From Lachnospiraceae bacterium HCP1S3_C2 (GTDB lineage Bacteria > Bacillota > Clostridia > Lachnospirales > Lachnospiraceae): 64,000 nucleotides of DNA. The translations under genes were made by a program, and so were the position numbers. The notes beneath the pieces are model-generated. The model was given only the letters and a program-made list of their open reading frames with translations. It was not told the DNA's origin and searched no databases. Shown piece by piece: positions 13,379 through 46,449 of the stretch. The stretch lies in the NCBI GenBank assembly GCA_052066835.1, contig JBQHRJ010000002.1; one strand, written 5' to 3'. The stretch's first letter is position 1. Each line of letters opens with the position of its first letter.

Positions 13379-13411
13379 AAAAAAGGAACCGGTATTTAAC
13401 ACCGGTTCCAT
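13379..13411 (-). terminator. Intrinsic terminator after secreted protein P1
   Basis: Minus-strand RNA GGAACCGGUguuaaauACCGGUUCC followed by UUUUUUGC. Confidence 0.6.
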
Positions 13412-13432
13412 GAAAACATTCACCTTAAAGGC

Positions 13433-14338
13433 TTATTTTTTCTTCTTTCCTAATACGATAGCAACTGCTGCAATTACAACAACTACTACGATTACTACTA
13501 CTACGATTACACCTGTGTTAGATGATGAATCATCTTTGCTGTCATCAGCCTTTGAAGCTGCTGTTGTATCTTCTTTAGCGTCTGTAGCCTTCTCTGTGAT
13601 TGTCTCACTCTGATCCTCACCTGTAACAGACTCATCTTCGCCATTATCTGCTGTTGCTGTCATTGTAACACCAACTTTTTCAGCTAAATCAGCATTTAAC
13701 TTAGCAACATCCTGACAATCTCTGTCTTTGTTTGTATCACCTGTTGTAGCATTTGGTTCTGCGTTCTCGATAGCATCTTTTGTAGCCTCTGTGAACTCAT
13801 ATGGATCTTCGTCTTTAGATTTCCATCTTACTAAGTAATTGATAGAATTCTTGTCAGCGTCTGCAACTACTACAGCACCTGTTGTAGAATCTACGTATAC
13901 TGTAACTTCACCTGTTGTCTCAGCAGGGAGTTTGAACTGTGTCTGGTTATCTCCCCATGCGATTGATGGGTTACCTAAACAACACTGATATGTCCATGCA
14001 AAATCATCTGCATCTTTTAAAATCTTGAACTCGTATCCTACTGGAATCTCAAGTCCGTCATATTTTGTATCTCCTTCACCTGTATCAGCTGTAGCTACGT
14101 TGAATGTAACTGAATATACATTCTCTACATCTGTCTCTGTCATAAGGCCCATTTCACCTGGTGCACCAGGATTTGTATCGTCCGTCTGAGCTGCCTCTAA
14201 CCAAGACTCACCTACTAAACCTTCTGCTCCAACTACTTTGTAAGTTGATCCGTCGCCTGCATATGCTAAACATCCCATTGCAATTGTCATTGCTGCTGTA
14301 GCTGCACATACTACAACTTTTTTAATCATTTTTCTCAT
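13433..14338 (-). CDS. Secreted surface protein P1: signal peptide + uncharacterised ~130-aa W/C domain (domain X) + acidic linker + SSNTG/TM/KKKK C-terminal sorting-signal-like tail
   Basis: 301 aa. Signal peptide MRKMIKKVVVCAATAAMTIAMGCLAYA. Domain X is paralogous to repeats in 15491-16405 and 17980-20235 (GxxxYTV.GGF...W.PL, QCCLGNPSIAWGDNQTQFKL, TGAVVVADADKNSI). The C-terminus is SNTGVIVVVVIVVVVVIAAVAIVLGKKKK. Confidence 0.7.
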   Translation of the reverse strand: MRKMIKKVVVCAATAAMTIAMGCLAYAGDGSTYKVVGAEGLVGESWLEAAQTDDTNPGAPGEMGLMTETDVENVYSVTFNVATADTGEGDTKYDGLEIPVGYEFKILKDADDFAWTYQCCLGNPSIAWGDNQTQFKLPAETTGEVTVYVDSTTGAVVVADADKNSINYLVRWKSKDEDPYEFTEATKDAIENAEPNATTGDTNKDRDCQDVAKLNADLAEKVGVTMTATADNGEDESVTGEDQSETITEKATDAKEDTTAASKADDSKDDSSSNTGVIVVVVIVVVVVIAAVAIVLGKKKK

Positions 14339-14470
14339 CTCGAAAAACTTCTCCTTTCAATTATTAAATAAAATCTGCTGTAGATATTTCCTACAACACT
14401 AGTATATTGTATATCATATACCTGTTTTTTGCAATCCTTTTTTTGCCATATCTTAACCCGGCAATAAGGT

Positions 14471-14503
14471 AAAAAAGGTCGCATATCAGCATGACATGCA
14501 ACC
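14471..14503 (-). terminator. Intrinsic terminator after P2
   Basis: Minus RNA GGUUGCAUgucaugcugaUAUGCGACC + UUUUUUACC (8-bp stem including one G-U pair). Confidence 0.5.
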
Positions 14504-14520
14504 CTTTTGTATGTAGTGAA

Positions 14521-15252
14521 TTATTCGTTAACTCTTCTTCTTGAAGCTACGAATACTGCTGCTGCTGCAATACCTGTGAATACGATTGCGTAAGCTGCGC
14601 TGTCACCTGTCTTTACAGATGTATTAGCTGTAGCTGTTGTAGCTGTTGTAGAACCAGCTGCTGCTGTTGTATCAGTTGTTGCTGAAGCTGTCTTTACATA
14701 GCTTGCAGGAGCTTCTGTTAAGAGCTTAGCTGCTGCTGCACCTGTATCACCTGAGAAATCACACCAGTAATCACCTGTTGCTGATGTAAACTGGTTCTTA
14801 GGGATAAGCTGGTTAGCTGTCTGCTGTTTAGCTGATGTGTCTTTTGTAAGACCTGAATTGTCAACATATGCCTGGTCTGACTCATCTCCGCCTGAAGCTG
14901 TATCAACCTTTGTATCTGCTACCATGTTATTGAAGATGGCAACTAATCCCTGTGAAGGATCCTGAACTGTAACTGTGATAGAATACCATCCATCATAGTC
15001 AGCCTCTTTTGTAAGTCTTGCACCCGGCCAGATTGCTCTACTCTTCTCTGTGTTGTATGCAGGGCACTTATCCTGTGGCATAATCTGTGTAGTAAATCCT
15101 ACACCTTCATAAATCCAACCACCAACATCGCTCCAGTTTGCTGCATTCTTAAAATGTAATGTAACATCCTGAGCAGCGAATGCAGATAATGACATAGCTG
15201 TTGTCATTGCTGCTGTTAATCCTACTGCAAATAACTTCTTTAAATTTCTCAT
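14521..15252 (-). CDS. Secreted surface protein P2: signal peptide + CBM25/26-like aromatic module (domain Y) + linker + VKTGD/TM/RRR tail
   Basis: 243 aa. Signal peptide ends AFA/AQD. Domain Y (DVTLHFKNAANWSDVGGWIYEGVGF...WPGARLTKEADYDGWYSITV...VAIFNNMVADTKVDT) resembles the starch-binding CBM25/26 sequence pattern. C-terminus is NTSVKTGDSAAYAIVFTGIAAAAVFVASRRRVNE. Confidence 0.65.
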   Translation of the reverse strand: MRNLKKLFAVGLTAAMTTAMSLSAFAAQDVTLHFKNAANWSDVGGWIYEGVGFTTQIMPQDKCPAYNTEKSRAIWPGARLTKEADYDGWYSITVTVQDPSQGLVAIFNNMVADTKVDTASGGDESDQAYVDNSGLTKDTSAKQQTANQLIPKNQFTSATGDYWCDFSGDTGAAAAKLLTEAPASYVKTASATTDTTAAAGSTTATTATANTSVKTGDSAAYAIVFTGIAAAAVFVASRRRVNE

Positions 15253-15424
15253 TTTTTCTCACTTCTCCTTTTTATTTTTTTCATGAAGCAGACCACAATC
15301 CGACTTCATATTAATGTTATTATAGCCTAAACTTTCCTATTTTGCAATACTTTTGTTTGAGCATTTTTCACAAAAAATACATATTTTTTTATGAATCTTA
15401 TACAGTTTTAATAGACATTTCATA

Positions 15425-15458
15425 ACAAAAGGAGACAATAAATAAATTACTGTCTCCT
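15425..15458 (-). terminator. Intrinsic terminator after P3
   Basis: Minus RNA GGAGACAGUAAuuuaUUUAUUGUCUCC + UUUUGUU. Confidence 0.5.
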
Positions 15459-15490
15459 TCTAAGTTGCTAATAATTATATGTATAAGTTA

Positions 15491-16405
15491 TTAAGCTTCT
15501 TTCTTCTTTGCTGCTACTGCAACTACTGCTGCAGCTGCGCATAATGTAACTACCATTGCTACTGGAGCTGCATCTCCTGTCTTTGTAGATGCGTTCTTAG
15601 CTGTTGTAGCTGTGTTAGCTGCTGTTGTAGCTGTGCTGGCTGCTGCTGTTGTAGCTGTGTTAGCTGCTGCTGTTGTCTCAGGTGTTGGTGCAGGTGTGCT
15701 TGAAAGCTTAGCTTCAAGTGCTGCATTAAGGCTTGCAAGATCAGGAATAGCTGTACATCCTGCTGCCTGTGCTTTAGCTGCCTTATCAGCTGCATAATCA
15801 CTCCATGAAGACTTAGACATATCTGCTACTGTCATCCATTTTAACTCATTATCATATCCAACGAAACTGATCATGTAATCAATTGAGTTACCGTCAGCAT
15901 CTTTGATAACTACTGCACCAGTTGTTGTATCCCAGTATACTGTTACTTCTGTCTCTTTGTCTACAGGAATTCTGAATCTTGACATGTTATCCTGATAAAG
16001 AGTTGTTCCGGCAATAAGTGAGTGATCCCATCCATCACCAAAAATCATGTTATCAACTGTACAAAGCTTGAATTCATTCTTTGTTCTTGATTCATCAGTA
16101 TCTTCAAAAGCAGGTACTGTGAATGTTCCAGAATATACTCCTGCATAATCTGTCTTTGTAAGCATATTATCAACTGCTAAAGGACCCCACTGAACTTTAG
16201 TGAATCCACCACCAATTGTATAATACACTTCGCCATCAGCTAATGACATAGGATCGATAGCTGCGTATGAAGTATGTGCTTCATCTGTTAATGTTTCCAT
16301 AACTGTTGGAAGTTCTGCCTTAGCTGTAGTAGCAGGTATAAGTGTTGCTGCTGCAACTGCAACTGCACATGCTAATGCAGAAACTGCTTTAATTGATTTT
16401 CTCAT
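15491..16405 (-). CDS. Secreted surface protein P3: signal peptide + domain X + T/A-rich linker + STKTGD/TM/KKK tail
   Basis: Start moved to the ATG at 16405 (MRKSIKAVSALACAVAVAAATLIPATTAKA signal peptide, with a purine-rich RBS upstream). The track ORF start at 16474 adds 23 implausible residues. Domain X: GEVYYTIGGGFTKVQWGPL...FKLCTVDNMIFGDGWDHS...TGAVVIKDADGNSI. C-terminus TKTGDAAPVAMVVTLCAAAAVVAVAAKKKEA. Confidence 0.7.
   Translation of the reverse strand: MRKSIKAVSALACAVAVAAATLIPATTAKAELPTVMETLTDEAHTSYAAIDPMSLADGEVYYTIGGGFTKVQWGPLAVDNMLTKTDYAGVYSGTFTVPAFEDTDESRTKNEFKLCTVDNMIFGDGWDHSLIAGTTLYQDNMSRFRIPVDKETEVTVYWDTTTGAVVIKDADGNSIDYMISFVGYDNELKWMTVADMSKSSWSDYAADKAAKAQAAGCTAIPDLASLNAALEAKLSSTPAPTPETTAAANTATTAAASTATTAANTATTAKNASTKTGDAAPVAMVVTLCAAAAVVAVAAKKKEA
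15596..15680. repeat. Intragenic tandem repeat (about 24-27 nt x3+) encoding the TATTAA(N/S) linker of P3
   Basis: tgttgtagctgtgttagctgctgc units repeat directly. Length variation is possible. Confidence 0.55.
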
Positions 16406-16530
16406 TGTAAAATCCATCCCTTTCTTCTTTTTGATTTTATTTTTCCTTATGTCAAAAATGACATGTCTACACACTATTAATTATATTATATAAACCCTTT
16501 ATTTGCAACACTTTTGTAATAAAAACTTCA

Positions 16531-16560
16531 AAAAAACCGGGCAGTTTTTAACTACCCGGC
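16531..16560 (-). terminator. Intrinsic terminator after P4
   Basis: Minus RNA CCGGGUAGuuaaaaaCUGCCCGG + UUUUUUUG. Confidence 0.6.
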
Positions 16561-16572
16561 CGTAAATTTTTA

Positions 16573-17706
16573 TTATTTTGTAACTTTAATCTTCTTATAA
16601 CTCTTTGCAGATACCTCTGTCATAGCCTTAATACCTGATACATCTCTGTAAGCAGCTGCTTTATAATAGTATGTCTTACCCTTTTTAGCTGTCTTATCTG
16701 TGTATGTAGTCTTAGTTGTTGATCCGATTGGCTCATATCCGCTGCCCTGTTTTGTTGAACGGTAAATGATGTATCCTGAAGCTTTGCTTACTGCATTTAC
16801 TTTAACTGTAACTTTACCTTTAGTTGTGTTTGATACAGATTTAACTGTTGGTATATCTAATGGTACTGCATATACTTCATTTGATGATGCAATAGATTTG
16901 CTTCCCTTAACAGCCTTGATTGTAAACTTGTAAGCTTTTCCTGCTTTAAGTGCCTTTTTGTTGAATTTTGTTACTGTAACAGTTGATTTAGTTGTTGAAG
17001 CAACCTTAACATTTTTCTTAGTTACTGAGTCATAGCAGAAAATGTTATACTTCTGAGCACCCTTATATTTGTCCCAAGAAAGTTTAACTGCACTCTTGCC
17101 TGTTGCAACTGCTGTAGCGTTGTTTACAACTGTAGATGCTTTCTTCTTGTATGATGCAGGAGCTGTATCAGTCATTAATATAGCTGATCCATTAACGTCA
17201 CCATTGAAATCACACCAATATTCTGTTGCTGTAAATTTACCCTTCATGATACATGCATTAGGAGCCTGTATCTTCTTTGCTCCGTTTATGTTATCTTTCT
17301 TAAGTCCTGATGCATCAACAAATTCCTGATCTTCCGGATGTCCGCCTGAAGCTGTATCAACTTTTTCATCAGCTACAAGGTTGTTGAATATCATGATAGC
17401 ACCATTTGATGTATCCTCAAATGTAGCTGTGATAGTATACCATCCGTCATAATTTGCCTCTGCTGTCATCTTAGCGCCAGGCCAGATTGCATGGTCATAA
17501 ATTGTATCATATGCAGGTGTAAATTCCTTAGGTGTAACATTCTTTGTCCAACCTATACCTTCATATATCCATGCTCCACAATCTTCCCAGTTATTTGTGT
17601 TTTTAAAATGGAAAGTAACATCTGTAGCTGCCATTGCCATTACTGACATAGCCATTGTCATAGCTGCTGTAGCGCCGACTGCAACAATTTTTTTAAGATT
17701 TCTCAT
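16573..17706 (-). CDS. Secreted surface protein P4: signal peptide + CBM25/26-like domain Y + two K-rich FN3-like domains, no membrane anchor
   Basis: 377 aa. Its N-terminal 140 aa are paralogous to P2 (DVTFHFKNTNNWEDCGAWIYEGIGW...IMIFNNLVADEKVDT). C-terminal FN3-like segments (SGYIIYRSTKQGSGYEPIGSTTKTTYTDKTAKKGKTYYYKAAAY). Confidence 0.65.
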   Translation of the reverse strand: MRNLKKIVAVGATAAMTMAMSVMAMAATDVTFHFKNTNNWEDCGAWIYEGIGWTKNVTPKEFTPAYDTIYDHAIWPGAKMTAEANYDGWYTITATFEDTSNGAIMIFNNLVADEKVDTASGGHPEDQEFVDASGLKKDNINGAKKIQAPNACIMKGKFTATEYWCDFNGDVNGSAILMTDTAPASYKKKASTVVNNATAVATGKSAVKLSWDKYKGAQKYNIFCYDSVTKKNVKVASTTKSTVTVTKFNKKALKAGKAYKFTIKAVKGSKSIASSNEVYAVPLDIPTVKSVSNTTKGKVTVKVNAVSKASGYIIYRSTKQGSGYEPIGSTTKTTYTDKTAKKGKTYYYKAAAYRDVSGIKAMTEVSAKSYKKIKVTK

Positions 17707-17926
17707 AATTCTATCTCCTTCTTTCTCTTTTTTACACTGACCACTTCAGTTAGGATTATTATATATCATTCTGCCCTTTTTTTCAATAGCTTTTGCCTAT
17801 TTTATTATGTATTTTTACCAACTTCAACACAAGTTACCACTCTTGTATTCGTCATATTAGCACAATCCATCCCCTGGCGAAGACCATTTTATGCAGACAT
17901 AATGTTGCATGTCACCATTGTATAAC

Positions 17927-17962
17927 GAAAAAATGAGCGTCCCATTAGCGAGACGCCCATTG
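17927..17962 (-). terminator. Probable intrinsic terminator after P5
   Basis: Minus RNA GGGCGUC-(10-nt loop)-GACGCUC followed by AUUUUUUCG. Confidence 0.4.
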
Positions 17963-17979
17963 AATAATCTTTAATTAAA

Positions 17980-20235
17980 TTATTTAACTGTAACTTTAAC
18001 TGTCTTAGTTGCTCCACCGCTTGTAATCTTAACTTTAGCAGTACCTTTCTTAAGACCCTTAACTGTTACTTTGCTTCCTGATGTTGTAATCTTAACTATC
18101 TTCTTAGAAGCTGATGTAGCATATGTAGCTTTAAATCCAGCTTTTGAAGGAGAAGTTGTAACTGAAAGTTTTACACTCTTAGCTTTCTTAAGTGAAACGC
18201 TTGAAACTTTCTTAGAACCATTCTTAACTGTGATTGTTGGGTTCTTAACTGTGATTGTTACTTTCTTTGTAATTCCGTTAGCTTTTGCAGAAATTACAAC
18301 CTTACCAGCTTTCTTAGCTGTTACAACACCCTTAGATGATACTGTTGCAACTCTTGTATTTGATGACTTATATGTTACTTTCTTGCTGTCGCCCTTAACT
18401 GTTGCCTTGATTGTTGTTTTGTATGTAGATTTTCCTGTGTAAAGTGTTGTCTTACCTGCTTTAATCTTTAATGAAGGCTTAACTGGTTCCGGAGCCGGTT
18501 TAGATAACTTCTCTACAAGTGCATTGTTAATCTCTGCTACGTTAGGAACTGCATCTACTTTAACCTTACCTGCTGGCCACTGATCTAATGTTGTAGCTGC
18601 TATCTCTTCCGGTGACATGAACTGTGTCTCATCATCATATCCTACCCAGCTGATTGAAAGGTCTACAAGATTTCCATCTGCATCCTTAACTACTACAGCA
18701 CCTGTTGCTGTATCAAGGTAGATTGTGAATGTTCCTGCTTCTTTATTAAGGATTCTGATCTGTGACTGATTGTCTGCATAAGTTGTTGTACCTACACAAA
18801 GACTTCCTGACCATCCTGCATCAATAATTGTATTGTTGATTCTGCAAACTTTAAATCTGTTGTTCCACTCTGCTGTCTCATCATATGCTCCGAGATCTAC
18901 AGTATAGCTGTATACTCCTTCATATGCTGTTGCAGCCATTGTGTTTGTCTTAGCTAATGGGTTCCATGTTGTTGGTCCGAATCCGCCTGCTATTGTATAG
19001 TAAGCTTCTCCTTCTTTCATTGTAGTTGTATCATACTCTAATGAATTCTTAAGAGCATCATTAATCTCTACAAGGTTTGGAACTGAATCTACTTTAACTT
19101 TTCCAGCTGGCCACTGATCTAATGTAGAAGCTGCTATCTCTGCCTCTGACATGAACTGTGTCTCATCATCATATCCTACCCAGCTGATTGAGAGATCTAC
19201 GAATTTACCATCTGTTCCTTTAACTGCTACAGCACCTGTGCTTGCATCGAATAAGATGTAGTATGTACCTGCTGTCTCATTAAGGATTCTGATCTGTGAC
19301 TGATTGTCTGCTGCTACAGTTGTTCCTAAGCAAACGCTTCCTGACCATCCTGCATCAATGATTGAGTTGTCAATCTTGCAAACTTTAAATCTGTTGTTCC
19401 ACTCTGCTGCTTCATCATATGCCTGAAGATCAGCTTTCATAATATATAAGCTGTCACTTCCTGCAACTTTTGTCATCTCTGCTTTTCTTGCAAGAGGATT
19501 CCATGTCTTAACTCCAAAGCCACCTGCTACTGTGTAGTGTACTTCACCTTCAGCCATTGTGCTTGGATCCATGTTTGTAAGTTTATCAGATAATGCTGCG
19601 TTAATCTTGTCAAGTGCAGGAACTGCATCTACTTTAACCTTGCCTGCCGGCCACTGGTCTAATGTAGAAGCTGCTATCTCTGCTGCTGACATGAACTGTG
19701 TCTCATCATCATATCCTACCCAGCTGATTGAAAGATCTACATCTGCATCATTTGCATCTCTTACAACTACAGCACCTGTTGTAGAATCAAAATATACTGT
19801 GAATTTTCCTGCTTCTTCATTAAGAATTCTGATCTGTGACTGATTGTCTGCTGCTACAGTTGTTCCTAAGCAAACGCTTCCTGACCATCCTGCATCAATG
19901 ATTGAGTTGTCAATCCTGCAGACTTTAAATCTGTTGTTCCACTCTGCTGCTTCATCGTATGCCGGAAGCTCAGCTGTGAAAGAATATACACCGTCAAGTC
20001 CTTCTACTGCTTTCATCTCAACATCCTTAGCTAACGGATTCCATGTAACTTTTCCAAATCCGCCTGCAACTGTATAGTGTACTTCTCCGTCTGCCATAGC
20101 AGTTGTGTCAAACTCCTCCGGTGCAGGTGTGGCAGTGTCATCAGCTAATGCACTTACTGTTGGAACTGCTGCCATAGTGAACGCCATAGCTACTGCACTT
20201 GCTACTGCAACTGTGCTTTTAATTAATTTCTTCAT
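17980..20235 (-). CDS. Large secreted surface protein P5: signal peptide + 3 tandem domain-X repeats (about 190 aa each) + two K-rich Big_2-like Ig domains
   Basis: 751 aa. Three near-identical repeats (GEVHYTVAGGFGKVTWNPL...AEWNNRFKVCRIDNSIIDAGWSGSVCLGTT...TGAVVVRDA...ISWVGYDDETQFMS..EIAASTLDQWPAGKVKVD). C-terminal KVTITVK/KVKITSGG Big_2-like pattern. Confidence 0.75.
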   Translation of the reverse strand: MKKLIKSTVAVASAVAMAFTMAAVPTVSALADDTATPAPEEFDTTAMADGEVHYTVAGGFGKVTWNPLAKDVEMKAVEGLDGVYSFTAELPAYDEAAEWNNRFKVCRIDNSIIDAGWSGSVCLGTTVAADNQSQIRILNEEAGKFTVYFDSTTGAVVVRDANDADVDLSISWVGYDDETQFMSAAEIAASTLDQWPAGKVKVDAVPALDKINAALSDKLTNMDPSTMAEGEVHYTVAGGFGVKTWNPLARKAEMTKVAGSDSLYIMKADLQAYDEAAEWNNRFKVCKIDNSIIDAGWSGSVCLGTTVAADNQSQIRILNETAGTYYILFDASTGAVAVKGTDGKFVDLSISWVGYDDETQFMSEAEIAASTLDQWPAGKVKVDSVPNLVEINDALKNSLEYDTTTMKEGEAYYTIAGGFGPTTWNPLAKTNTMAATAYEGVYSYTVDLGAYDETAEWNNRFKVCRINNTIIDAGWSGSLCVGTTTYADNQSQIRILNKEAGTFTIYLDTATGAVVVKDADGNLVDLSISWVGYDDETQFMSPEEIAATTLDQWPAGKVKVDAVPNVAEINNALVEKLSKPAPEPVKPSLKIKAGKTTLYTGKSTYKTTIKATVKGDSKKVTYKSSNTRVATVSSKGVVTAKKAGKVVISAKANGITKKVTITVKNPTITVKNGSKKVSSVSLKKAKSVKLSVTTSPSKAGFKATYATSASKKIVKITTSGSKVTVKGLKKGTAKVKITSGGATKTVKVTVK
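18384..20097. repeat. Three tandem approximately 570-bp DNA repeats inside P5 (near-identical stretches, e.g. 19305-19380 vs 19845-19920)
   Basis: Long identical nucleotide runs seen directly (…gttgttcctaagcaaacgcttcctgaccatcctgcatcaatgattgagttgtcaatc… occurs twice). Confidence 0.7.
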
Positions 20236-20510
20236 AAATTAAAACCATCCCTTTCTTATGTTTTTTTGTTTTTTGCAATGTTGCATGAAATTATTATAGT
20301 ACATTTGCTATAATTTTGCAACTGATTTTCCCAAGTAATTGAACATTTTTAATAATTATTATGTAAAATTTTATCAATTACTATGTAAAATTACTTAAAA
20401 GTTCTAAAAAAACTTAAATCATTATAAACATTTTGGCTATTAGTTGAGTTTTTTTTCACAGTATGCTATACTTTGTGCATTATTTTTACTGAAAGAAGGT
20501 ACAATCACAT

Positions 20511-21257
20511 ATGGAAATATTGCAGCCCGGCAAAAAAAATGACGATGACGTAAAACACGGCAGACTTGAAGCTGAAGCAGAAATATACAATCCAAATCGT
20601 AAAGATCCGTCGGCATCCGAGCGTTGGAAAAGCATGGACAGGAAACAAAAGCTACACCATTTCAGGGAATACTACCTTAAATATGTAATATTGGGAATTG
20701 TTGTACTGGCATTTGCCGGCTACATGATATACTATATTGTAAAGCCTGATGAGAAAGATACATTTTTCGGTGCTTCATTTAATGTGTATTTTGATATTGA
20801 TTTAGAGAAGGATATTCCTGACCGTTTTGGAAAGTATCTTGAGAGCACTACAGATACAAAGCCTGACAAAGACAGAATATTTTTCAAATCATATTACGAT
20901 TCAGTCCTCACGGACACAGAAGTAAACAACTTCTTTGATAAACGCAGATACGATATATTTATCACAACCGAGAGCAGGTTTAAAACATATGCCAAAACCG
21001 ACAATTATTTAGACCTTAAGGATGTTCTTCCGGCTGATAAATATGAAGAATATAAAGATAAACTTGTATTTTGCAATAACCAGAAACAAAAGGATACTAC
21101 CACCGAACATGCCTATGGCATTTCGCTTAAAGACTGTAATTACAAATTTTACGATTATTACGAAAATCCAATCAATGATGCGGTTATAGGAATAGTCATC
21201 AATACCCAGCGTCCCGAAACCGCAATCGACTTTATTGATTTTCTGTTTAATGACTGA
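20511..21257 (+). CDS. Hypothetical single-pass membrane protein (cytoplasmic N-terminus, one TM, about 170-aa extracytoplasmic domain)
   Basis: 248 aa. TM segment YVILGIVVLAFAGYMIYYIV. No motif I recognise. Divergent from P5. Confidence 0.45.
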   Translation: MEILQPGKKNDDDVKHGRLEAEAEIYNPNRKDPSASERWKSMDRKQKLHHFREYYLKYVILGIVVLAFAGYMIYYIVKPDEKDTFFGASFNVYFDIDLEKDIPDRFGKYLESTTDTKPDKDRIFFKSYYDSVLTDTEVNNFFDKRRYDIFITTESRFKTYAKTDNYLDLKDVLPADKYEEYKDKLVFCNNQKQKDTTTEHAYGISLKDCNYKFYDYYENPINDAVIGIVINTQRPETAIDFIDFLFND

Positions 21258-21292
21258 TTTAAAACAGAGATTTATTTGCACCAAAAATCCCC

Positions 21293-21337
21293 ACAGTGTA
21301 TCAGATAATGATATACTGTGGGGATTTTATATTTACG
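21293..21337. terminator. Bidirectional intrinsic terminator between convergent genes
   Basis: aaaaATCCCCACAGTGTATCagataatgATATACTGTGGGGATtttat. A perfect 16-bp stem with an A-tract and a T-tract on either side. Confidence 0.7.
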
Positions 21338-21386
21338 CAGGCAACGTACGAAAATCCTAAGTTACCTCCAAAATGTCCTGCCCTTA

Positions 21387-23063
21387 TTATTTAAGAACCA
21401 CTATTGAAAAAGGTGGCATTACGATTGTATCTTCTGTCTGATAAGGTTCATCATCACCGACTGCAAGGATGGCTTTAATGTTTGTATAACCATTTTCAGT
21501 TCTGTCCAGTTTAACTTCCTTTTCGTCTGTTGATGACGTATTTGCAAGTACAATTATGCTGCTGCCCTCATAAGTCTTTCTTACTGCAAATATTTCCTCA
21601 TCCACACCGTCTATTATTTCCACATCTCCTCGTGCCATTTCTGGAAACATGTTTCTTATTTTAACAGCATGTTTTACATAATTTAATATAGAGCTGTCAT
21701 CTTTGAGCTGTTCTTCCACTGAACCGAATTTGTTAATGACATATGCAGACTGCATATTTACCGGTCCTCTTGTTTTTCCTGTATCATCTGTCGATGACCA
21801 TATCATAGGTGAACGCTTGTTTTCATCATCACCCGCTCCTCCGAGTCCTATTTCATCACCATAATAATAGAAAGGTGAACCATTCATTATGCTTAACAGT
21901 CCGGCATCCATCTTTATTTTGTCCTCTTTAAATGCAAGATAATGTGCTGCCCTGTTCAAATCATGATTTGCATAAAAAGGAGCCATTACTCCGTTTGGAT
22001 TTTTACTCTTTATAGTATCAAGTGAATAAACAAGATTGTCTGCAAGATAACGTCCATTATACTCTTTATTATTATCCTGTACTATGTTTGCAAGGTGTCC
22101 GTCAAAGCTTGCATAGTTGAAATCAAATACACTGTCTATTCCGCTGGCAAGATATTCATAATAATCTCCTGACCACGCCTCTCCGACTATGTAGGCATCA
22201 GGTTTTATACTCTTGACATACTGGCTGAACCATGTGAGAACCTCCACATTTTTAGGTGTATTTCCTGAATAATATTCTTTCACTGCATCAAGTCTGAATC
22301 CGCCTACACCGTACTCCTCTATCCAGTATTTTGCAATATTTTCAAATTCCTCTTTAAGCTTTGGATTGTCCCAGTTAAGGTCAGGCATGTTGCTGCTGAA
22401 CTGTGCATTGTAATACCAATCTGAATTGCCTACCTGATAATAATTTCCCGATTCTTTAGTTCTTGAGAATGTATAATATCCAACGTATGGGCATACATTT
22501 TCGTCAGGCTCCTCTCCCGGTGCCAGACTTTCAAGATATTCTGAAGCCTTCAAAAACCATTCATGGTGATCACTCGAATGATTCATGACAAGATCCATTA
22601 TAACCTTAATGCCTCTCTTATTACACTCTTCCACCAACTGTTTAAAGTCTTCTTTTGTTCCGTATCCTGAGTCAATGTCATAATAATCCATAACATCATA
22701 TTTATGATATGTAGGAGACGGATTCACAGGCATAAGCCATAAGCCGTTCATCCCAAGGTCATCATCTGTAGTATCATCACCATCATTTATATAATCAAGC
22801 TTTGATATAAGTCCCTGAATATCTCCCAGGCCGTCACCATTACTGTCATAAAATGAACCTACAAATACTTCATAATAATTTCTGTAGTTATCATCAACCA
22901 CGTTAAGTTCCGTAGCAAGCTCCGGAGCGACAGTTTCCACTTCTACCTTTTTGTCTGTCTCCTTAGAAGCATCCTTTTTGTCAGTTGTACCGCACGCACA
23001 GATTCCCAGACACAATGCACCGATGGCAACTGATGCAAATAACTCTTTTTTTGTTAATCTCAT
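21387..23063 (-). CDS. GH13 alpha-amylase family lipoprotein
   Basis: 558 aa. Lipoprotein-like signal (…ALCLGICACG), GH13 conserved regions (DLVMNHSS, GGFRLDAVKE, EAWS, FYANHD). Confidence 0.8.
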   Translation of the reverse strand: MRLTKKELFASVAIGALCLGICACGTTDKKDASKETDKKVEVETVAPELATELNVVDDNYRNYYEVFVGSFYDSNGDGLGDIQGLISKLDYINDGDDTTDDDLGMNGLWLMPVNPSPTYHKYDVMDYYDIDSGYGTKEDFKQLVEECNKRGIKVIMDLVMNHSSDHHEWFLKASEYLESLAPGEEPDENVCPYVGYYTFSRTKESGNYYQVGNSDWYYNAQFSSNMPDLNWDNPKLKEEFENIAKYWIEEYGVGGFRLDAVKEYYSGNTPKNVEVLTWFSQYVKSIKPDAYIVGEAWSGDYYEYLASGIDSVFDFNYASFDGHLANIVQDNNKEYNGRYLADNLVYSLDTIKSKNPNGVMAPFYANHDLNRAAHYLAFKEDKIKMDAGLLSIMNGSPFYYYGDEIGLGGAGDDENKRSPMIWSSTDDTGKTRGPVNMQSAYVINKFGSVEEQLKDDSSILNYVKHAVKIRNMFPEMARGDVEIIDGVDEEIFAVRKTYEGSSIIVLANTSSTDEKEVKLDRTENGYTNIKAILAVGDDEPYQTEDTIVMPPFSIVVLK

Positions 23064-23614
23064 TTCTTTCCTCCAATTTTCTTTTTTTGTTCTGAACGTA
23101 ATATGTCAAACGATGTAAATACATAGAAAATCACCGTCACTGCACATATCTTCGAGAAGAAGAAAAATGCTATTTCGATTTCCTCAAAGTTTAAGAATAC
23201 ATACTCAGCTATATAACACACCAGTATAACTCTCCAAACCATGGTCAACCGCTTGCTTTGTATATCCAGCCTTGGATTTTTAAAGCTTTTTAACGCAAAC
23301 GTCAGTAAAAATATTGTTGTCACTTTAAGCATATCCGATGCCGCACTTATCATCGTAACCGCCATCACAGGCATTTTCGACATCAGTCCGTACATATCAA
23401 GAATGTACGCCACATACGAATACACAAATGCCACTATAAGAGAAATATTAAATTTCTTAAAGTCGGCAGACCCGTTTTTATATTTCCACGCCCCCCAGAA
23501 TATCAGAAGATATCCTATAAAATCAGGCAGTATATCTGCTCTGTTTCCCTGAGTTCCTATCTGATACACAATATCAAACAGTACCAGGAAGTATCCTATT
23601 ATAATTCGGATCAT
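23060..23614 (-). CDS. Polytopic membrane protein, translationally coupled upstream of amylase
   Basis: 184 aa, about 5 TM segments. Its stop overlaps the amylase start by 4 bp (ATGA). Confidence 0.5.
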   Translation of the reverse strand: MIRIIIGYFLVLFDIVYQIGTQGNRADILPDFIGYLLIFWGAWKYKNGSADFKKFNISLIVAFVYSYVAYILDMYGLMSKMPVMAVTMISAASDMLKVTTIFLLTFALKSFKNPRLDIQSKRLTMVWRVILVCYIAEYVFLNFEEIEIAFFFFSKICAVTVIFYVFTSFDILRSEQKKKIGGKK

Positions 23615-23798: not shown

Positions 23799-25355
23799 AT
23801 GGGAGAAATGTTTTGTTTTCAATGCCAGCAGACATCCCACAATACAGGCTGTGAGGGACGTGCCGGCGTATGCGGTAAAAAGTATGATACCGCAAATTAT
23901 CAGGATGAGCTTACAGGCGCACTTATAGGACTTTCCCGTGCCGTCAGATCATCTGAGCCTACTGATACATCTGATGAACTTATGTTTAAAGGCCTGTTTA
24001 CAACTATAACAAATGTAAATTTTAATAACGAAACCATCAACGATCTTATTAAAAAAGTCAGAACAGAAAAGAAGAATATATCCGATGATGCTGATGATTA
24101 TAATATGCAGCATTTATGGGCAGCCGACGAAGATATCCGCTCTCTCAAATCTCTTATATTATTCGGTCTGCGTGGCATGGCGGCATACGCATATCATGCA
24201 TACGCCCTCGGATACAAAGACCGGGAGGTAACTGACTTTTTCTATGAAGGGCTTTGCGCTGTGGGCGGTGAACATGACACAGATTATCTGTTATCCGTTG
24301 TGTTAAAAACAGGTGAGGTGAATTTTAAGTGTCTTGAACTTCTTGACACGGCAAATACCGAAACCTATGGTAACCCGGTTCCCGTCACTGTACCGCTTAC
24401 TATAGAAAAAGGACCGTTTATAGTTGTCAGCGGACATGACCTTCACGACATGAAGCTTTTACTTGAACAGACGGACGGAACCGGCGTAAACGTGTATACA
24501 CACAGCGAAATGCTTCCTGCCCACGGTTATCCGGAACTAAAGAAACACAAGCAGCTAAAGGGTAACTTCGGTACTGCATGGCAGAGCCAGCAGTTTGAAT
24601 TTCACAATATTCCTGCTCCAATATTATTCACAACGAACTGCCTTATGCCGGTACGCCAAAGCTATTGTGACCGTGTCTATACTACATCTGTCGTCTCTTA
24701 TCCTGATCTCATCCACATAGGAGAAGATAAAGATTTCACACCGGTAATCCAAAAAGCCATCGAATGTAAAGGCTATCCGGAAGACCACCCTATGACCGGC
24801 ATAAATGGCGGTACAACTGTTACAACCGGTTTCGGACACGATGCCATACTTTCACATGCCGAAAAAATCATTGAACTCATAAACAAAGGAAAAATAAAGC
24901 ACATATTCTTAATCGGCGGCTGCGACGGTGCTGCTCCAGGGAGAAGCTATTATACTGAATTTGCAAAATCTGTACCTGATGACGCAATTATTATTACTCT
25001 TGCATGTGGAAAATACAGACTGAATGATTTAAACTTAGGAGATATAGAAGGAATTCCCCGTCTTCTCGATGCCGGACAGTGTAACGATTCATACACTGCC
25101 ATCAAGGTCGCCCTCGCTCTTGCAGATGCATTTAAATGTAATGTAAACGAACTTCCTCTTACACTTGTTCTTTCATGGTATGAGCAAAAGGCTGTTTGTA
25201 TTCTGCTCGCCCTTCTCTCACTCGGAATTAAAAATATATTTCTCGGGCCAACCATACCGGCATTTATATCAGAAAACGTTCTGAATATCCTTATAGAAAA
25301 CTACGGAATAAGAAAAATCTCTACCGTAGAAGAAGACCTTGCAAAATCTTTTTAA
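23799..25355 (+). CDS. hcp: Hydroxylamine reductase / hybrid-cluster protein
   Basis: 518 aa. N-terminal CFQCQQT...C...C cysteine cluster and hybrid-cluster ligand regions (CGKYRLN, GQCNDSY). Confidence 0.8.
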   Translation: MGEMFCFQCQQTSHNTGCEGRAGVCGKKYDTANYQDELTGALIGLSRAVRSSEPTDTSDELMFKGLFTTITNVNFNNETINDLIKKVRTEKKNISDDADDYNMQHLWAADEDIRSLKSLILFGLRGMAAYAYHAYALGYKDREVTDFFYEGLCAVGGEHDTDYLLSVVLKTGEVNFKCLELLDTANTETYGNPVPVTVPLTIEKGPFIVVSGHDLHDMKLLLEQTDGTGVNVYTHSEMLPAHGYPELKKHKQLKGNFGTAWQSQQFEFHNIPAPILFTTNCLMPVRQSYCDRVYTTSVVSYPDLIHIGEDKDFTPVIQKAIECKGYPEDHPMTGINGGTTVTTGFGHDAILSHAEKIIELINKGKIKHIFLIGGCDGAAPGRSYYTEFAKSVPDDAIIITLACGKYRLNDLNLGDIEGIPRLLDAGQCNDSYTAIKVALALADAFKCNVNELPLTLVLSWYEQKAVCILLALLSLGIKNIFLGPTIPAFISENVLNILIENYGIRKISTVEEDLAKSF

Positions 25356-25606: not shown

Positions 25607-27043
25607 ATGTTAAGAAATATTACAAGATACTTTTCGCTTATCATTTGCAGCATATATACATACAGAATGATTCTAAATGTCAGGCCAAAATCACGAAAAT
25701 CATATTATATAATCTGTTCCGTATTTTCTGCTGCCCTTGCCACACTGTCGTACTTGCTGCTTAAAGATATTGATTACTTTGAATTTGTTTTTATGATTGT
25801 AATGGTAACCCTGTTTTTAACCAGATATTATTCAAAAGATTTTTCCCTGTCATTCAACACTGTATTAATTTCATTCAGTTACAGCTATATAGTATTCTCC
25901 ATTGTGTCAGTTCCGTTAGTGACATTTAATTACATAGTATTAGGCTCATTTTTAAATCCTACACTGCTACAGTTTATAGGTATGTTTATACAATTTGCCG
26001 TATGCACTATACCTTTCAGATTTAACAGGTTCAAAAACGGACTTTCATTTATAAACAAACCATTTTACAGCACACCATTTACCGTTATCGGTATCCTTGT
26101 GATTCTCGCAGCAATGTTGTTAAATGCCAAAACTGAAGGAACCCTCATTCACATTGTTCCACTTTCATTTTTACTTATCTGTGCCATATTCATGCTAAGC
26201 TGGTGGCAGTCTTACACAACCCGCGAATACATGGACAGAATCCGTTCAAGAGAATTTCAGGAGTATGTAATTCAGCTTCAGGATAAGGATATTAAAATCA
26301 ATCAGCTTGAAAATGAAGTGAAACACCTCTCTTCACTGATACATAAAGATAATAAACTTCTGCCTGCAATGGAACTTGCTGTTGAAAATATGATTAATAA
26401 TCCTGACAGCCATGATAAGGAGAAACTTCTTGACAGACTTAAAGACATAAGTTCAGAACGTACAGGAATACTTAACAGACTTGAAACAAGCGAAAAGTAC
26501 ATATCCACAACCAGAAATATCGCCATTGATTCTCTGTTTGGCTATATGCATCAGCGTGCATGCCGGGACGGGATAAATTTTAATGTAATTGCAGACCCCA
26601 ATATAACCGAATGGATTGGTAATCCTGTGACTGAAGACGAACTGTCTACCATCCTTGCAGATATAACCGAAAATGCAATAATCGCGACCGGATCATCTGA
26701 CATCAAAAATGTTATGGTAAACTTTGATACATCGTCCTGTCTCACCATAAATGTGTATGACAGCGGTCCGGCATTTGATATAAATGTGCTTGCAAATTGG
26801 GGACGCAAAAGATATACAACCCACAAAAATGAAGGTGGAAGCGGTATCGGACTGTATACAACCTACGAAATACTTAAAAAATATAATGGAAGCTTTCTTA
26901 TAGAAGAATTCGATATTGAAAACAAATCTTTCACAAAAAAAGTCTCCATTATATTTGATTATTCAGACGAATATATGCTCAAATCGACAAGAAGCAAATC
27001 AGACAGGCATATACTCAAGTCATCTTTATTTAAACTTATCTAA
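25607..27043 (+). CDS. Membrane sensor histidine kinase, AgrC/HPK10-like (6-TM sensor + GHKL ATPase)
   Basis: 478 aa. About 6 N-terminal TM helices, a coiled-coil linker, a putative H-box LIHKDNKLL, and an ATPase with N/G boxes (ENAIIATGS..., DSGPAFD, GGSGIGLYTTYEILKKYNG). Confidence 0.65.
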   Translation: MLRNITRYFSLIICSIYTYRMILNVRPKSRKSYYIICSVFSAALATLSYLLLKDIDYFEFVFMIVMVTLFLTRYYSKDFSLSFNTVLISFSYSYIVFSIVSVPLVTFNYIVLGSFLNPTLLQFIGMFIQFAVCTIPFRFNRFKNGLSFINKPFYSTPFTVIGILVILAAMLLNAKTEGTLIHIVPLSFLLICAIFMLSWWQSYTTREYMDRIRSREFQEYVIQLQDKDIKINQLENEVKHLSSLIHKDNKLLPAMELAVENMINNPDSHDKEKLLDRLKDISSERTGILNRLETSEKYISTTRNIAIDSLFGYMHQRACRDGINFNVIADPNITEWIGNPVTEDELSTILADITENAIIATGSSDIKNVMVNFDTSSCLTINVYDSGPAFDINVLANWGRKRYTTHKNEGGSGIGLYTTYEILKKYNGSFLIEEFDIENKSFTKKVSIIFDYSDEYMLKSTRSKSDRHILKSSLFKLI

Positions 27044-27057
27044 AACTTCATATTTTA

Positions 27058-27118
27058 AAAGAGCATTATACAATTGATTTTTAACCAAATCTTTTATATA
27101 ACGCTCTTTTTTTATTCT
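27058..27118 (+). terminator. Hairpin + T-tract between kinase and regulator genes
   Basis: AAAGAGCATTATA-(loop)-TATAACGCTCTTTtttttatt. Confidence 0.4.
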
Positions 27119-27206
27119 ATCCTTCATTTCTCATATTTACTTATTCCACCGTTGCCTATAGTTTAAACACTGGGTTTTCAAATTTCAATTCAATATCAGT
27201 ATACAT

Positions 27207-27253
27207 TTTGTGTTGATTTTTGTTGTTTTGTGTTGTTTTTGTGTTTATTTATG
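27207..27253. repeat. TG-rich simple-sequence tract (TTTTGTG-like units)
   Basis: tgtgttgatttttgttgttttgtgttgtttttgtgtttatttatgtt lies immediately upstream of a TATAAT-like box and the regulator gene. Confidence 0.5.
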
Positions 27254-27312
27254 TTATAATACGCATATATGGACAAAACAAATTTTTTCAAATATATTAG
27301 GCAGGGATATTT

Positions 27313-28089
27313 ATGGATAATAAACTTTATATTTTGATTATAGAAGATGATAATGATGCATGCGCCAGACTTGAAAAATGTATAGATGCAAACGAATCAA
27401 TGTATATAGCAGGTATCACCGGCAGTTCAACTGAAGGGCTTAAATGTATTACTAACTGTCGCCCGAATGTTGTCATACTTGACCTTGAACTCATGTATGG
27501 TGAAGGCGACGGAATATCTTTTCTAAAAGACTTAAAAGCCCTCAATCCTTCAGTATTTCCGTTTATAATAGTGACTACCAACAATCCGAGTACATCTATT
27601 CATGAGCTTACAAGATCTCTCGGTGTTGACTATATTATGTATAAGCATCAAAAAGGATATTCAGAACAGTCTGTCATAGACTTTCTTGATATAACTAAAG
27701 ATTTCATAGTGAACAATCATAAACCGGATGAATGTGCAGAAGTTCCTGAGATTGAACATAAAAAGAAGCTTTCTCTTGCAGTTAAAAATGAACTTAACAG
27801 ACTCGGTGTGAGTCCTAAATTAATAGGCTATACATACCTGTATGAAGGAATTCTTATTCTTCTTGAAGATAACACAAGCAATGTATTTAATATTCTTTCA
27901 GGCAAATACCACAAATCCATTCAGAGCATACAACGTTCAATGCAGACCGCAATTAATAAGACATGGGCAGTATCAAGCATATCAACACTTGAAAAATATT
28001 ACACAAACCGAATACGTCCGGATAAAGGAGCACCTACAGTAATGGAATTTATACATTACTATAGAAACCAGTTATCTGACAACATTTAA
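27313..28089 (+). CDS. Spo0A-like response regulator (receiver + divergent Spo0A_C DNA-binding domain)
   Basis: 258 aa. Receiver domain (LIIEDDND...VVILDLELMYGEGDG). The C-terminus aligns to Spo0A_C (GVSPKLIGYTYLYEGI ... SIQRSMQTAINKTW ... APTVMEFI vs Spo0A GVPAHIKGYLYLREAI...RVERAIRHAIEVAW...KPTNSEFI). Confidence 0.65.
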   Translation: MDNKLYILIIEDDNDACARLEKCIDANESMYIAGITGSSTEGLKCITNCRPNVVILDLELMYGEGDGISFLKDLKALNPSVFPFIIVTTNNPSTSIHELTRSLGVDYIMYKHQKGYSEQSVIDFLDITKDFIVNNHKPDECAEVPEIEHKKKLSLAVKNELNRLGVSPKLIGYTYLYEGILILLEDNTSNVFNILSGKYHKSIQSIQRSMQTAINKTWAVSSISTLEKYYTNRIRPDKGAPTVMEFIHYYRNQLSDNI

Positions 28090-43353: not shown

Positions 43354-44418
43354 TTATTTCTGTGTTGCCTCTTTAATCTTTTCTGTCAAAAGCGGAACAA
43401 TCTTATTTAAATCACCAACTATACCATAATCTGCTACATCAAAGATAGGAGCTGTCTCATCTTTGTTGATTGCTATTATGATGTCTGACTCTTCCATACC
43501 TGCTGTATGCTGAATAGCACCAGAAATACCGATTGCAAAGTATACCTGTGGACGAACTGTCTTACCTGTCTGTCCAACCTGTAATTCCTTAGGTTTCCAG
43601 CCATTATCTACAACGGCACGAGAACAGCTTACTGTTCCACCTAAAGCTTCTGCAAGGTCATCTAACAATTTGAAGTTTTCTGCACTTCCAACACCTCTAC
43701 CACCAGATACAAGAATCTTTGCATCCATGATATCAACTACATCAGTTACTTCCTTAACGATATCAAGAATCTCTACATACTTGTTGTCAGGTACGAATCC
43801 AGGATTATACTCGATAACTTCTGCCTTAGCACCCTTGATAGGATCAATCTTCTGCATAACACCAGCACGAACTGTTGCCATCTGTGGACGGTTGTCAGGG
43901 CAAGCGATTGTTGCTATTGTGTTTCCACCAAATGCAGGACGAGTCATAAGAAGCTGATTGTGCTTCTGCTCTTTTCCAGGAATTGCATTAATTGGGAAAT
44001 CACCAATCTCAAGAACTGTACAGTCTGCTGTAAGACCTGTCTTAACTCTTGCTGATACTCTAGGTCCTAAATCTCTACCGATTGCAGTAGCACCTACAAG
44101 CATGATCTCAGGCTTGTACTCATTTATAACAGATGCAAGTGCATGTGCATATGGTTCTGTTCTGTAATCTTTTAATTCAGGATCATCTACAACGATAACT
44201 CTGTCTGCACCATACTCTGCTAACTGGTCTGTAAGTCCTTTAACTCCGGAACCGATTAATACTGCTGTAACCTGTGTGTCTAATTTGCCTGCTAACTCTT
44301 TTGCTTTTCCGAGTAACTCGAATGCAATACTGCTGATTTCATTGTCAACCTGCTGAGCAAAGACAAATACGCCTTTATATTCCTCTAAATTCATTACTGT
44401 CACCACTCTTCCTTCCAA
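43354..44418 (-). CDS. etfA: Electron transfer flavoprotein alpha subunit
   Basis: 354 aa. C-terminal FAD-binding region (PQVYFAIGISGAIQHTAGM). Confidence 0.9.
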   Translation of the reverse strand: MEGRVVTVMNLEEYKGVFVFAQQVDNEISSIAFELLGKAKELAGKLDTQVTAVLIGSGVKGLTDQLAEYGADRVIVVDDPELKDYRTEPYAHALASVINEYKPEIMLVGATAIGRDLGPRVSARVKTGLTADCTVLEIGDFPINAIPGKEQKHNQLLMTRPAFGGNTIATIACPDNRPQMATVRAGVMQKIDPIKGAKAEVIEYNPGFVPDNKYVEILDIVKEVTDVVDIMDAKILVSGGRGVGSAENFKLLDDLAEALGGTVSCSRAVVDNGWKPKELQVGQTGKTVRPQVYFAIGISGAIQHTAGMEESDIIIAINKDETAPIFDVADYGIVGDLNKIVPLLTEKIKEATQK

Positions 44419-44419
44419 A

Positions 44420-45202
44420 TTATATTACGTGTTTTTCTAATAATTTGCCCATGATATAATCAACTGCTTCATCTGTTTCAAGGGCAACTTTTTCTCCTGC
44501 GCCTTTTCTGACCTTATCAGATGCCTTAGCAATCTTTGTTGGAGAACCTGCAAGACCAAGATCTGAATCATCAACATCTTTAAGATCTTTTCTTCCCCAA
44601 ACTGTAATGTCAGCATCATAAGCATCAAAAATTCCACCCGGTGTCATATAACGTGGAACATTTAATTCTGAAAGAGCTGTTACAAGGCATGGCATCTTTG
44701 CTTTTAATATATGATGTCTGTCTTCATACTGACGATTTACGATTACGTAATCGCCTTCTACCTTAATATCCTGTGCATAAGAGATTACAGGAATTCCAAG
44801 ATGCTCTGAAATCTGTGGTCCAACCTGAGCTGTATCTCCATCAATAGCCTGACGACCTGTTATGATAAGATCATAATCAAGATTTCTGATTGCTCCTGCT
44901 ATTGTTGTAGATGTTGCCCATGTATCTGCTCCACCTAAAACTCTGTCTGTTACAAGGATTCCCTTGTCAGCACCCATAGCCATAGCTTCACGAAGAACTT
45001 CTTCAGCCTTTGGAAGACCCATTGTAACTACTGTAACTTCTGCACCATACTCATCTTTTAATCTAAGTGCTGCTTCAAGTCCTGCTTTATCATCCGGATT
45101 CATGATTGTTAACATTGCAGCTCTGTCAAGTGTACCATCAGGGTTGAACTTAACTCCGCCCTTAGTATCAGGTACCTGTTTAATACAAACAACGATTTTC
45201 AC
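44420..45202 (-). CDS. etfB: Electron transfer flavoprotein beta subunit
   Basis: 260 aa. MKIVVCIKQVPDT N-terminus. Sits 1 nt from etfA. Confidence 0.9.
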   Translation of the reverse strand: MKIVVCIKQVPDTKGGVKFNPDGTLDRAAMLTIMNPDDKAGLEAALRLKDEYGAEVTVVTMGLPKAEEVLREAMAMGADKGILVTDRVLGGADTWATSTTIAGAIRNLDYDLIITGRQAIDGDTAQVGPQISEHLGIPVISYAQDIKVEGDYVIVNRQYEDRHHILKAKMPCLVTALSELNVPRYMTPGGIFDAYDADITVWGRKDLKDVDDSDLGLAGSPTKIAKASDKVRKGAGEKVALETDEAVDYIMGKLLEKHVI

Positions 45203-45241
45203 GGTATATTCACTCCTTAATCTTTTTTATTTAAATTTTAA

Positions 45242-46411: not shown

Positions 46412-46449
46412 TTTTTAATCTCCTCCTACAAAAATTGTTATGCCCTGAA

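Follow-up and report, generated by a model that had tools for sequence, protein, structure and literature searches.

The window analyzed here is a 64,000-nucleotide stretch of contig JBQHRJ010000002.1 from Lachnospiraceae bacterium HCP1S3_C2 (assembly GCA_052066835.1). Between positions 13379 and 23614, it carries a cluster in which five genes (P1 to P5), encoding secreted proteins made up of putative starch-binding modules, lie close to the gene of a GH13 alpha-amylase. The best reading of this cluster, supported in silico, is that of a modular surface apparatus for alpha-glucan binding. We estimate at about 60% the probability that it is a conserved starch-adherence island, in which P1-P5 would display alpha-glucan-binding modules and the membrane-tethered amylase, of subfamily GH13_36, would cut the captured chains. 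A first inspection of the sequence (the original prediction) had proposed a dedicated surface apparatus for starch or glucan, not recognized as a described system. The modules, the amylase subfamily, the conserved linkage of the genes and the fusions in which the modules recur all agree with the first part of this proposal; the second part does not stand.

The five genes are consecutive on the minus strand, and all five open reading frames (ORFs) were found where they had been predicted. P1 (13433-14338, 301 residues) is made up of a signal peptide, a divergent X25-like module, an acidic linker and a C-terminal transmembrane helix followed by KKKK. P2 (14521-15252, 243 residues) and P3 (15491-16405, 304 residues) share a common plan with a signal peptide, one binding module (CBM26 in P2, an X25-like unit in P3), a T/A-rich linker and a sortase-type tail. 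P4 (16573-17706, 377 residues) has a signal peptide, a CBM26 module and two FN3 domains, and P5 (17980-20235, 751 residues) has a signal peptide, three X25-like units and two Big_2 domains; neither carries a C-terminal anchor. The start of P3 is an ATG, in agreement with the public gene call. The signal peptides are read from the N-termini, which are basic and then hydrophobic. In the public annotation, P5 is an "Ig-like domain-containing protein" and P2 is "hypothetical".

P1-P5 are paralogous far beyond chance. In BLASTP comparisons, P2 and P4 are 53% identical over 217 residues (E 4e-76), P3 and P5 31-39% identical (E 4e-36 to 3e-49), P1 and P3 30% identical (E 8e-25) and P1 and P5 26-32% identical (E 2e-9 to 6e-16). 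Together with hmmsearch, these comparisons bear out the view that the N-terminal parts are built from only two types of modules, hereafter domain Y, found in P2 and P4, and domain X, found once in P1, once in P3 and three times in P5.

The two binding modules

Domain Y, described at first as CBM25/26-like, is by sequence a CBM26 module. P2 matches PF16738 (CBM26) with 31.9 bits, above the curated cutoff of 28.1, and P4 reaches 20.9 bits, under the same cutoff. The CBM26 pair of Eubacterium rectale Amy13K (6b15) matches both P2 (E 2e-8) and P4 (E 1.4e-6). The module spans nt 14683-15174 in P2, where it contains an inserted loop, and nt 17137-17628 in P4. The aromatic residues of the HF..NW..GW.YEG, WPG and GWY motifs are present. 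Hence, the searches place domain Y in CBM26 and not among modules that bind something other than carbohydrates.

Domain X appears to be a divergent and rare subfamily of the X25-type starch-binding modules. A hidden Markov model (HMM) built from P5 finds three copies in P5 (nt 19540-20103, 19003-19539, and 18466-19002), one in P3 (nt 15659-16249, E 4.5e-43) and one in P1 (nt 13634-14257, E 5e-15), all on the minus strand. The distribution of domain X was therefore correctly foreseen; its length was not, since the HMM, the alignment and the AlphaFold2 (AF2) model give a repeat unit of about 180 residues instead of about 130. This unit is made of a beta-sandwich of about 120 residues and a helical subdomain of about 55 residues. 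The AF2 model has a mean predicted local distance difference test (pLDDT) value of 92.6 and a predicted template modeling (pTM) score of 0.89. When it is compared with the PDB using Foldseek, the sole convincing match is the X25-2 module of Ruminococcus bromii Sca5, with a probability of 1.0. Thus, domain X has the beta-sandwich fold of X25.

Family searches point in the same direction, with more divergence. P5 matches PF22058 (X25_BaPul_like) with 21.8 bits (E 2e-4), under the cutoff of 27, and P1 and P3 have no PF22058 match in the Pfam scan. The P5 orthologue P0002, 65% identical to P5, reaches 57.1 bits on the same family, over the cutoff, and 8 of the 46 members of the X family match PF22058. 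The X profile also finds a protein in which Pfam recognizes four genuine X25 domains (E 2.8e-7; hhalign E 6e-6). Malto-oligosaccharides are bound by the X25 modules of SusE and SusF, and also by those of Sas20 and Sca5, which act there as a two-lobe clamp (PMC9112005). In an alignment of 29 units from the window proteins and their homologues (A1), residue W20 is invariant and aligned with the first X25 tryptophan. Three features distinguish X from classical X25: the second canonical aromatic position is variable (Y, W or A), a second invariant tryptophan, W72, sits in an insertion that is missing from the aligned X25 unit, and a helical subdomain is appended. The subfamily is rare, as only 17 proteins were found in a word-indexed search of 5.8 billion sequences, and only 60 clusters at E 1e-3 among 1.84 billion representatives.

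The contexts in which X and Y recur are informative. Five loci (L001-L005), all in metagenome-assembled genomes (MAGs) of Lachnospiraceae, came out of a scan of 185,579 species genomes. Two of these loci encode giant surface proteins in which both modules are fused. In L003 (9194-13102), X and the CBM26-like Y are joined to choline-binding repeats, recognized by Pfam, and to Ig-like repeats seen by eye. In L005 (113-4759), they are joined to leucine-rich-repeat-like (LRR-like) segments and to a dockerin-like C-terminus, both also seen by eye. L005 and L003 come from rumen and goat-caecum MAGs, respectively. The same two modules are thus reused with many anchoring devices. In addition, P0036 combines X, CBM26 and dockerin in one polypeptide, and P0054 combines X with a CBM48-GH13 enzyme and ChW repeats. 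Such fusions, to CBM26-type modules or to a CBM48-GH13 enzyme, connect X with the metabolism of alpha-glucans.

The same divergence can be read otherwise. With the X25-like beta-sandwich put to another use, the X proteins could be general adhesins or could recognize a different glycan (mucin of the host, further microbial glucans, or dextran or pullulan alone), so that only the CBM26 proteins would be specific for starch. The X modules of the window itself remain below the Pfam X25 threshold, and a search of PDB sequences with the X-alignment profile gave no meaningful match, so that X is tied to X25 only via the fold, Pfam and hhalign. The second aromatic is an alanine in units 1 and 2 of P5 and the invariant W72 lies in an inserted loop; therefore, the binding site of X may differ from that of X25. 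Moreover, 7 of the 46 family members carry X beside BspA-type LRRs without any starch module, as generic adhesins do, and single X25 lobes of R. bromii Sca5 do not bind alone (PMC9112005). Against this, X is fused to CBM26-type modules (L003, L005, P0036) and to CBM48-GH13 (P0054), and genes for X and CBM26 proteins alternate beside the amylase in four genomes. On balance, we give little credence to an X module unrelated to starch, and alpha-glucan binding by both module types is retained as the preferred reading.

An amylase in a conserved gene order

The GH13 gene (21387-23063, minus strand, 558 residues) matches PF00128 at 1e-76 and has the conserved GH13 regions in which the catalytic residues lie, DLVMNH (residue 157), MPDLN (226), GFRLDAVKE (255), EAWS (295) and NHD (366). 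In the PDB, the top-ranking entry is the E. rectale amylase 7JJN (E 1.5e-118), which we take to be Amy13B, followed by 7JJT, 9FZ2 and H. orenii AmyA (1WZA); SusG comes below these four, at 5e-47. Both 7JJN and 1WZA belong to GH13_36 (PMC11940188), and MPDLN in conserved region V is a marker of this subfamily (PMC9781549). From its sequence, the enzyme is accordingly assigned to GH13 subfamily 36. The N-terminus (…ALCLGICACG) resembles a lipoprotein signal, in agreement with the idea of a lipoprotein amylase.

Immediately upstream, MEM (23060-23614, minus strand, 184 residues) encodes a protein with several hydrophobic segments. The end of MEM and the start of GH13 share 4 nt (ATGA), with the MEM stop codon inside the overlap, which agrees with the predicted coupling of a membrane-protein gene to the amylase gene. 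MEM belongs to no Pfam or NCBIfam family, and its only homologues are lineage-restricted. The binder genes do not abut the amylase directly, as had been thought. A conserved gene that had been overlooked, ORF6 (20511-21257, plus strand, 248 residues), sits between P5 and GH13, divergent from P5 and convergent with GH13, and a hairpin terminator of GH13 (21283-21323, minus strand, dG -21.3) separates the two convergent genes. The ORF6 product crosses the membrane once: some 50 conserved residues at the N-terminus, on the cytoplasmic side, precede a transmembrane helix (residues 54-79), and about 170 residues follow as an ectodomain. It matches no known family in Pfam or NCBIfam. The ectodomain is perhaps folded like a single lobe of a sugar-binding protein; a role of ORF6 in sensing sugars or in assembly at the membrane is possible.

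L001 and L002 (Lachnospira sp. UBA2821) share with the window the order GH13-ORF6-P5-P4-P3-P2-P1-lipid kinase-rpoD, and their island proteins are 49-75% identical to those of the window. L004, from goat caecum, has a reduced island, which comprises MEM, GH13 (55% identity) and ORF6 (30%), one protein with three X units and a sortase tail, and two others that resemble P1 and P2, respectively. Conservation across related genomes had been proposed as a check, and the linkage between binders and amylase is indeed kept in three of them (L001, L002, and L004). The number of X copies in the P5 orthologues varies from 2 to 4. MEM is present in L002 and L004 and absent from L001; its absence from a syntenic locus rules it out as a core part of the island.

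In the window, the genes that flank the island are housekeeping genes. On one side are those for glutamate synthase, rpoD and a lipid kinase of the diacylglycerol kinase family. On the other side lie a 518-residue ORF, an orphan histidine kinase next to a regulator of the Spo0A_C type, and genes for a permease, an RNA methyltransferase and a helicase of the UvrD/PcrA type. Both flanks differ from those of the window in L004, and one, the upstream flank, differs in L002. The kinase and regulator pair (25607-28089, plus strand), near the island, consists of a kinase with HATPase_c as its only domain and many N-terminal hydrophobic segments, and of a response regulator with a Spo0A_C-type output. 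This pair, the ORF at 23799-25355 and the permease have no counterpart in L002 between the homologues of the methyltransferase and of MEM.

The gene order bears on whether the binders and the amylase work together. In another scenario, P1-P5 bind starch but are uncoupled from the GH13_36 enzyme; they would serve large wall-anchored amylases of the Amy13K type, with several CBMs, encoded elsewhere, or would just hold the cell to granules that primary degraders have opened, and the linkage would be an inherited gene order. In E. rectale, Amy13B is reported to process the oligosaccharides released by the large enzyme Amy13K, and enzymes of this type reportedly act on already solubilised oligosaccharides and do not bind large substrates (PMC8288039); therefore, the binders may work mainly with an enzyme other than the neighboring amylase. 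The binder genes form separate transcription units, with an opposite-strand gene and a terminator between them and the amylase. In addition, the syntenic genomes are fairly close relatives (their RpoD proteins are 82-94% identical), so that part of the synteny may be inherited. Finally, the fused X+Y paralogue of L003 sits away from any amylase. Paralogues unlinked to amylases had been named as evidence that would speak against an island, and L003 touches on this point; yet the same genome keeps the island, as L004. The block GH13-ORF6-binders stays together in L004 at 55% GH13 identity, despite remodeled binders and different flanks, and it is intact in L002 even though the upstream flank differs. 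An uncoupled set of binders is for these reasons a minor, if serious, possibility, and we keep to an island in which binders and amylase would act together.

Predicted retention and expression of the binders

P1-P3 had been described as ending in sorting-signal-like tails. This holds for P2 and P3, whose tails are tripartite. The P2 tail (nt 14524-14625) consists of SVKTGD, about 20 hydrophobic residues and RRRVNE, and the P3 tail (nt 15494-15598) of STKTGD, about 20 hydrophobic residues and KKKEA. Homologues of P2 and P3 have TPKTGD or APTTGD at the same position, and P2 reaches 18.8 bits on NF033846 (NPXTG-anchored), under the cutoff of 23.5. The xxKTGD tails are likely a degenerate sortase signal of the (L/N)PXTG type. 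P1 had been misread in this respect. Its linker is acidic (pI 4.1) and its tail (nt 13436-13534) is a very hydrophobic helix followed by KKKK. The TG dipeptide of P1 is not conserved, and the most distant orthologue, in L004, has no TG motif; P1 is thus ruled out as a sortase substrate and is more likely membrane-anchored by a plain transmembrane helix.

P4 and P5 end in the lysine-rich FN3 and Big_2 tails that had been predicted. The two FN3 domains of P4 (nt 16576-17136) have a pI of 10.1 and the two Big_2 domains of P5 (nt 17983-18465) a pI of 10.9, as compared with 4.2-4.7 for the binding modules of the two proteins. Through these basic tails, P4 and P5 may adhere to the anionic wall without a covalent bond; they could just as well be released into the medium.

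Each binder gene is monocistronic, as proposed, with its own terminator and also its own promoter, on the minus strand. The promoters are close to the consensus, with the form TTGCAA/TTGAAA-17 nt-TATAAT/TACAAT, and lie 80-103 nt 5' of the ATG. That of P5 (20293-20321) reads TTGCAA-17-TATAAT, and equivalent elements precede P4 (17758-17786), P3 (16480-16508), P2 (15319-15347) and P1 (14406-14434). The terminators are hairpins followed by U residues, with folding free energies (dG) of -17.7 to -20.8 kcal/mol and z scores of -4.2 to -7.2. They are found at 13379-13409 for P1 (dG -17.7), 14471-14508 for P2 (-20.8), 15426-15460 for P3 (-18.1), 16530-16561 for P4 (-18.2) and 17928-17961 for P5 (-17.9). 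Separate transcription units fit the shuffling of modules and the changes of copy number among orthologues.

Each 5' untranslated region (5'-UTR) also contains a short stem-loop just 3' of the -10 box (regions 14339-14434, 15253-15347, 16406-16508, 17707-17786, and 20236-20321, from P1 to P5). At the P5 locus, the promoter and the 5' hairpin are kept in L001, L002, and L004, with changed stem sequences. Such a hairpin may stabilize the mRNA, and strong independent units that begin with hairpins of this kind would suit surface proteins made in large amounts. A search for catabolite-responsive elements gave four one-mismatch matches in the window, no more than expected by chance, and none inside the island. 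A 22-bp direct repeat in the intergenic region between ORF6 and P5, upstream of the P5 promoter (20347-20392, about 2.1 copies, TTTTACATAGTAATTG-like), was considered as a regulator site and rejected, as L001, L002, and L004 have not kept it.

This expression pattern could also suit abundant structural proteins of the envelope, similar to S-layer or coat proteins, whose carbohydrate-binding-like folds bind the wall polymers of the cell itself. The strong independent promoters, 5'-UTR hairpins and strong terminators are compatible with such a role, as are the very basic Ig-like tails and the several types of anchoring. In contrast, the Pfam scan finds no S-layer homology, cell-wall-binding repeat or LysM-type module in P1-P5, and the linkage with the amylase is conserved. 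To our knowledge, CBM26 and X25 modules are alpha-glucan-specific in every case that has been characterized. A structural role is consequently very improbable, and starch adherence remains the function that we favor for P1-P5.

Relation to known starch-binding systems and biological meaning

In R. bromii, Sas20 combines an X25-like domain with a dockerin, and Sca5 has two X25 modules, two cohesins and a sortase signal (PMC9112005). Sas6 contains CBM26 and CBM74 (bioRxiv 10.1101/2022.11.20.514607). Sas6, Sas20 and Sca5 are non-catalytic secreted proteins of the Gram-positive surface, made of X25 and/or CBM26 modules that hold starch, and P1-P5 are predicted to be of the same kind. Sca5 ends in a sortase sequence, as P2 and P3 appear to do, and its X25-2 module is the best structural match of domain X. 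The island differs in that five monocistronic binder genes are clustered beside a GH13_36 gene, with a rare X subfamily and three predicted modes of retention. Furthermore, no dockerin or cohesin is found in P1-P5 (Pfam, E up to 1). Membership of an amylosome-type assembly is therefore ruled out, and the distinction that had been drawn from cohesin-dockerin amylosomes is upheld.

In Bacteroides thetaiotaomicron, SusE and SusF are tethered non-catalytic proteins with tandem X25-type modules, encoded beside the membrane-tethered amylase SusG, and this arrangement resembles that of the island. A clear separation from Sus-type systems had been claimed, and it is true of SusC and SusD; the X25 binders and the SusG-related amylase, however, recall SusE and SusF with SusG. 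Here, the envelope is Gram-positive, without a SusC/SusD pair, an outer membrane or lipoprotein-anchored binders, CBM26 proteins are present too, and the binder genes lie outside the enzyme operon. Neither a SusC-type TonB-dependent transporter nor a SusD-type lipoprotein turned up, either in the island or elsewhere in the window among the genes scanned with Pfam; the host is a member of the Lachnospiraceae.

E. rectale belongs to the same family, the amylase of the island is closest to its 7JJN, and the CBM26 modules are most like those of its Amy13K. In E. rectale, starch-binding modules are carried by the large wall-anchored enzyme Amy13K, and starch binding by Roseburia and E. rectale has been proposed to rely on enzyme-borne CBMs (PMC8288039; PMC5320581). 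In the island, in contrast, the binding modules sit on five enzyme-free proteins. A GH13_36 enzyme is present between 13433 and 23614, and no carbohydrate transporter or regulator is recognizable there with Pfam or NCBIfam. Hence, the locus is excluded from the Gram-positive polysaccharide utilization loci (gpPULs) as defined in PMC5320581.

The literature searches found no description of the locus or of the organism. To call the island a kind of system that had never been described was nevertheless an overstatement, since Sas6, Sas20, Sca5 and SusE/F/G use the same modules. The parts are known; what is new is a clustered, dockerin-free and variously anchored set of putative stand-alone starch binders in Lachnospiraceae, with a rare X25 subfamily.

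In the proposed mechanism, the binders would retain granules of starch, or soluble alpha-glucan chains, on the cell surface. Retention would be of three kinds, with P1 held in the membrane by a helix that follows an acidic spacer, P2 and P3 attached to peptidoglycan by a sortase, and P4 and P5 kept by their basic domains or released. The membrane-tethered GH13_36 enzyme, of the E. rectale 7JJN type and related to SusG, would trim the captured chains to short malto-oligosaccharides, to be taken up by a transporter encoded elsewhere. One strong promoter and one terminator per binder gene would allow high and independent expression.

Several points weigh against this scheme, beside the divergence of domain X, the substrate range of Amy13B-type enzymes, the relatedness of the syntenic genomes, the unlinked L003 paralogue and the variable presence of MEM, discussed above. 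No sortase gene and no sugar transporter or regulator were recognized among the Pfam-scanned genes of the window. Besides, starch binding, the modes of anchoring, the transfer of chains to the amylase and what ORF6 and MEM may do are deduced from sequences and models. A bolder version of the scheme would make the island a self-contained Gram-positive counterpart of SusE/F/G, in which binders held in tiers, ever farther from the membrane, by the membrane, the wall and electrostatic forces attach the cell of a butyrate-producing lineage to granules without amylosomes, ORF6, with an ectodomain resembling half a maltodextrin-binding protein, acts as a sugar sensor or assembly factor, and X is a new starch-binding subfamily with a binding site formed around the inserted tryptophan. 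We regard it as unlikely in this complete form.

Elsewhere in the window, a 655-residue subtilase-family protease gene (51267-53234, minus strand) overlaps by 16 nt a downstream 366-residue ORF (50182-51282, minus strand). The latter has no Pfam match at E <= 1e-5, and the surrounding G+C content is low (0.32). The window also carries a complete butyryl-CoA pathway cluster (43354-49422, minus strand, and 53883-55226, plus strand), with genes for thiolase, crotonase, 3-hydroxybutyryl-CoA dehydrogenase, acyl-CoA dehydrogenase and EtfB/EtfA. A gene of the CoA-transferase family lies near it. The source organism is probably a butyrate producer.

The attachment of gut bacteria to starch particles affects which organisms benefit from resistant starch, as well as the amount of butyrate produced. 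In the starch systems described for Lachnospiraceae, it is the enzymes that carry the binding modules. Starch-adherence proteins that stand alone have been described chiefly in the amylosomes of R. bromii and in the Sus system of Bacteroides. The locus described here suggests a third arrangement, in which binders that are not enzymes, have no dockerin and differ in their anchors form a conserved cluster, in a lineage with the butyryl-CoA pathway. If the binding is true, the rare X25 subfamily (about 60 clusters, often with modules for cell-surface retention) could be better annotated, and markers would become available for starch-adherent Lachnospiraceae in metagenomes.

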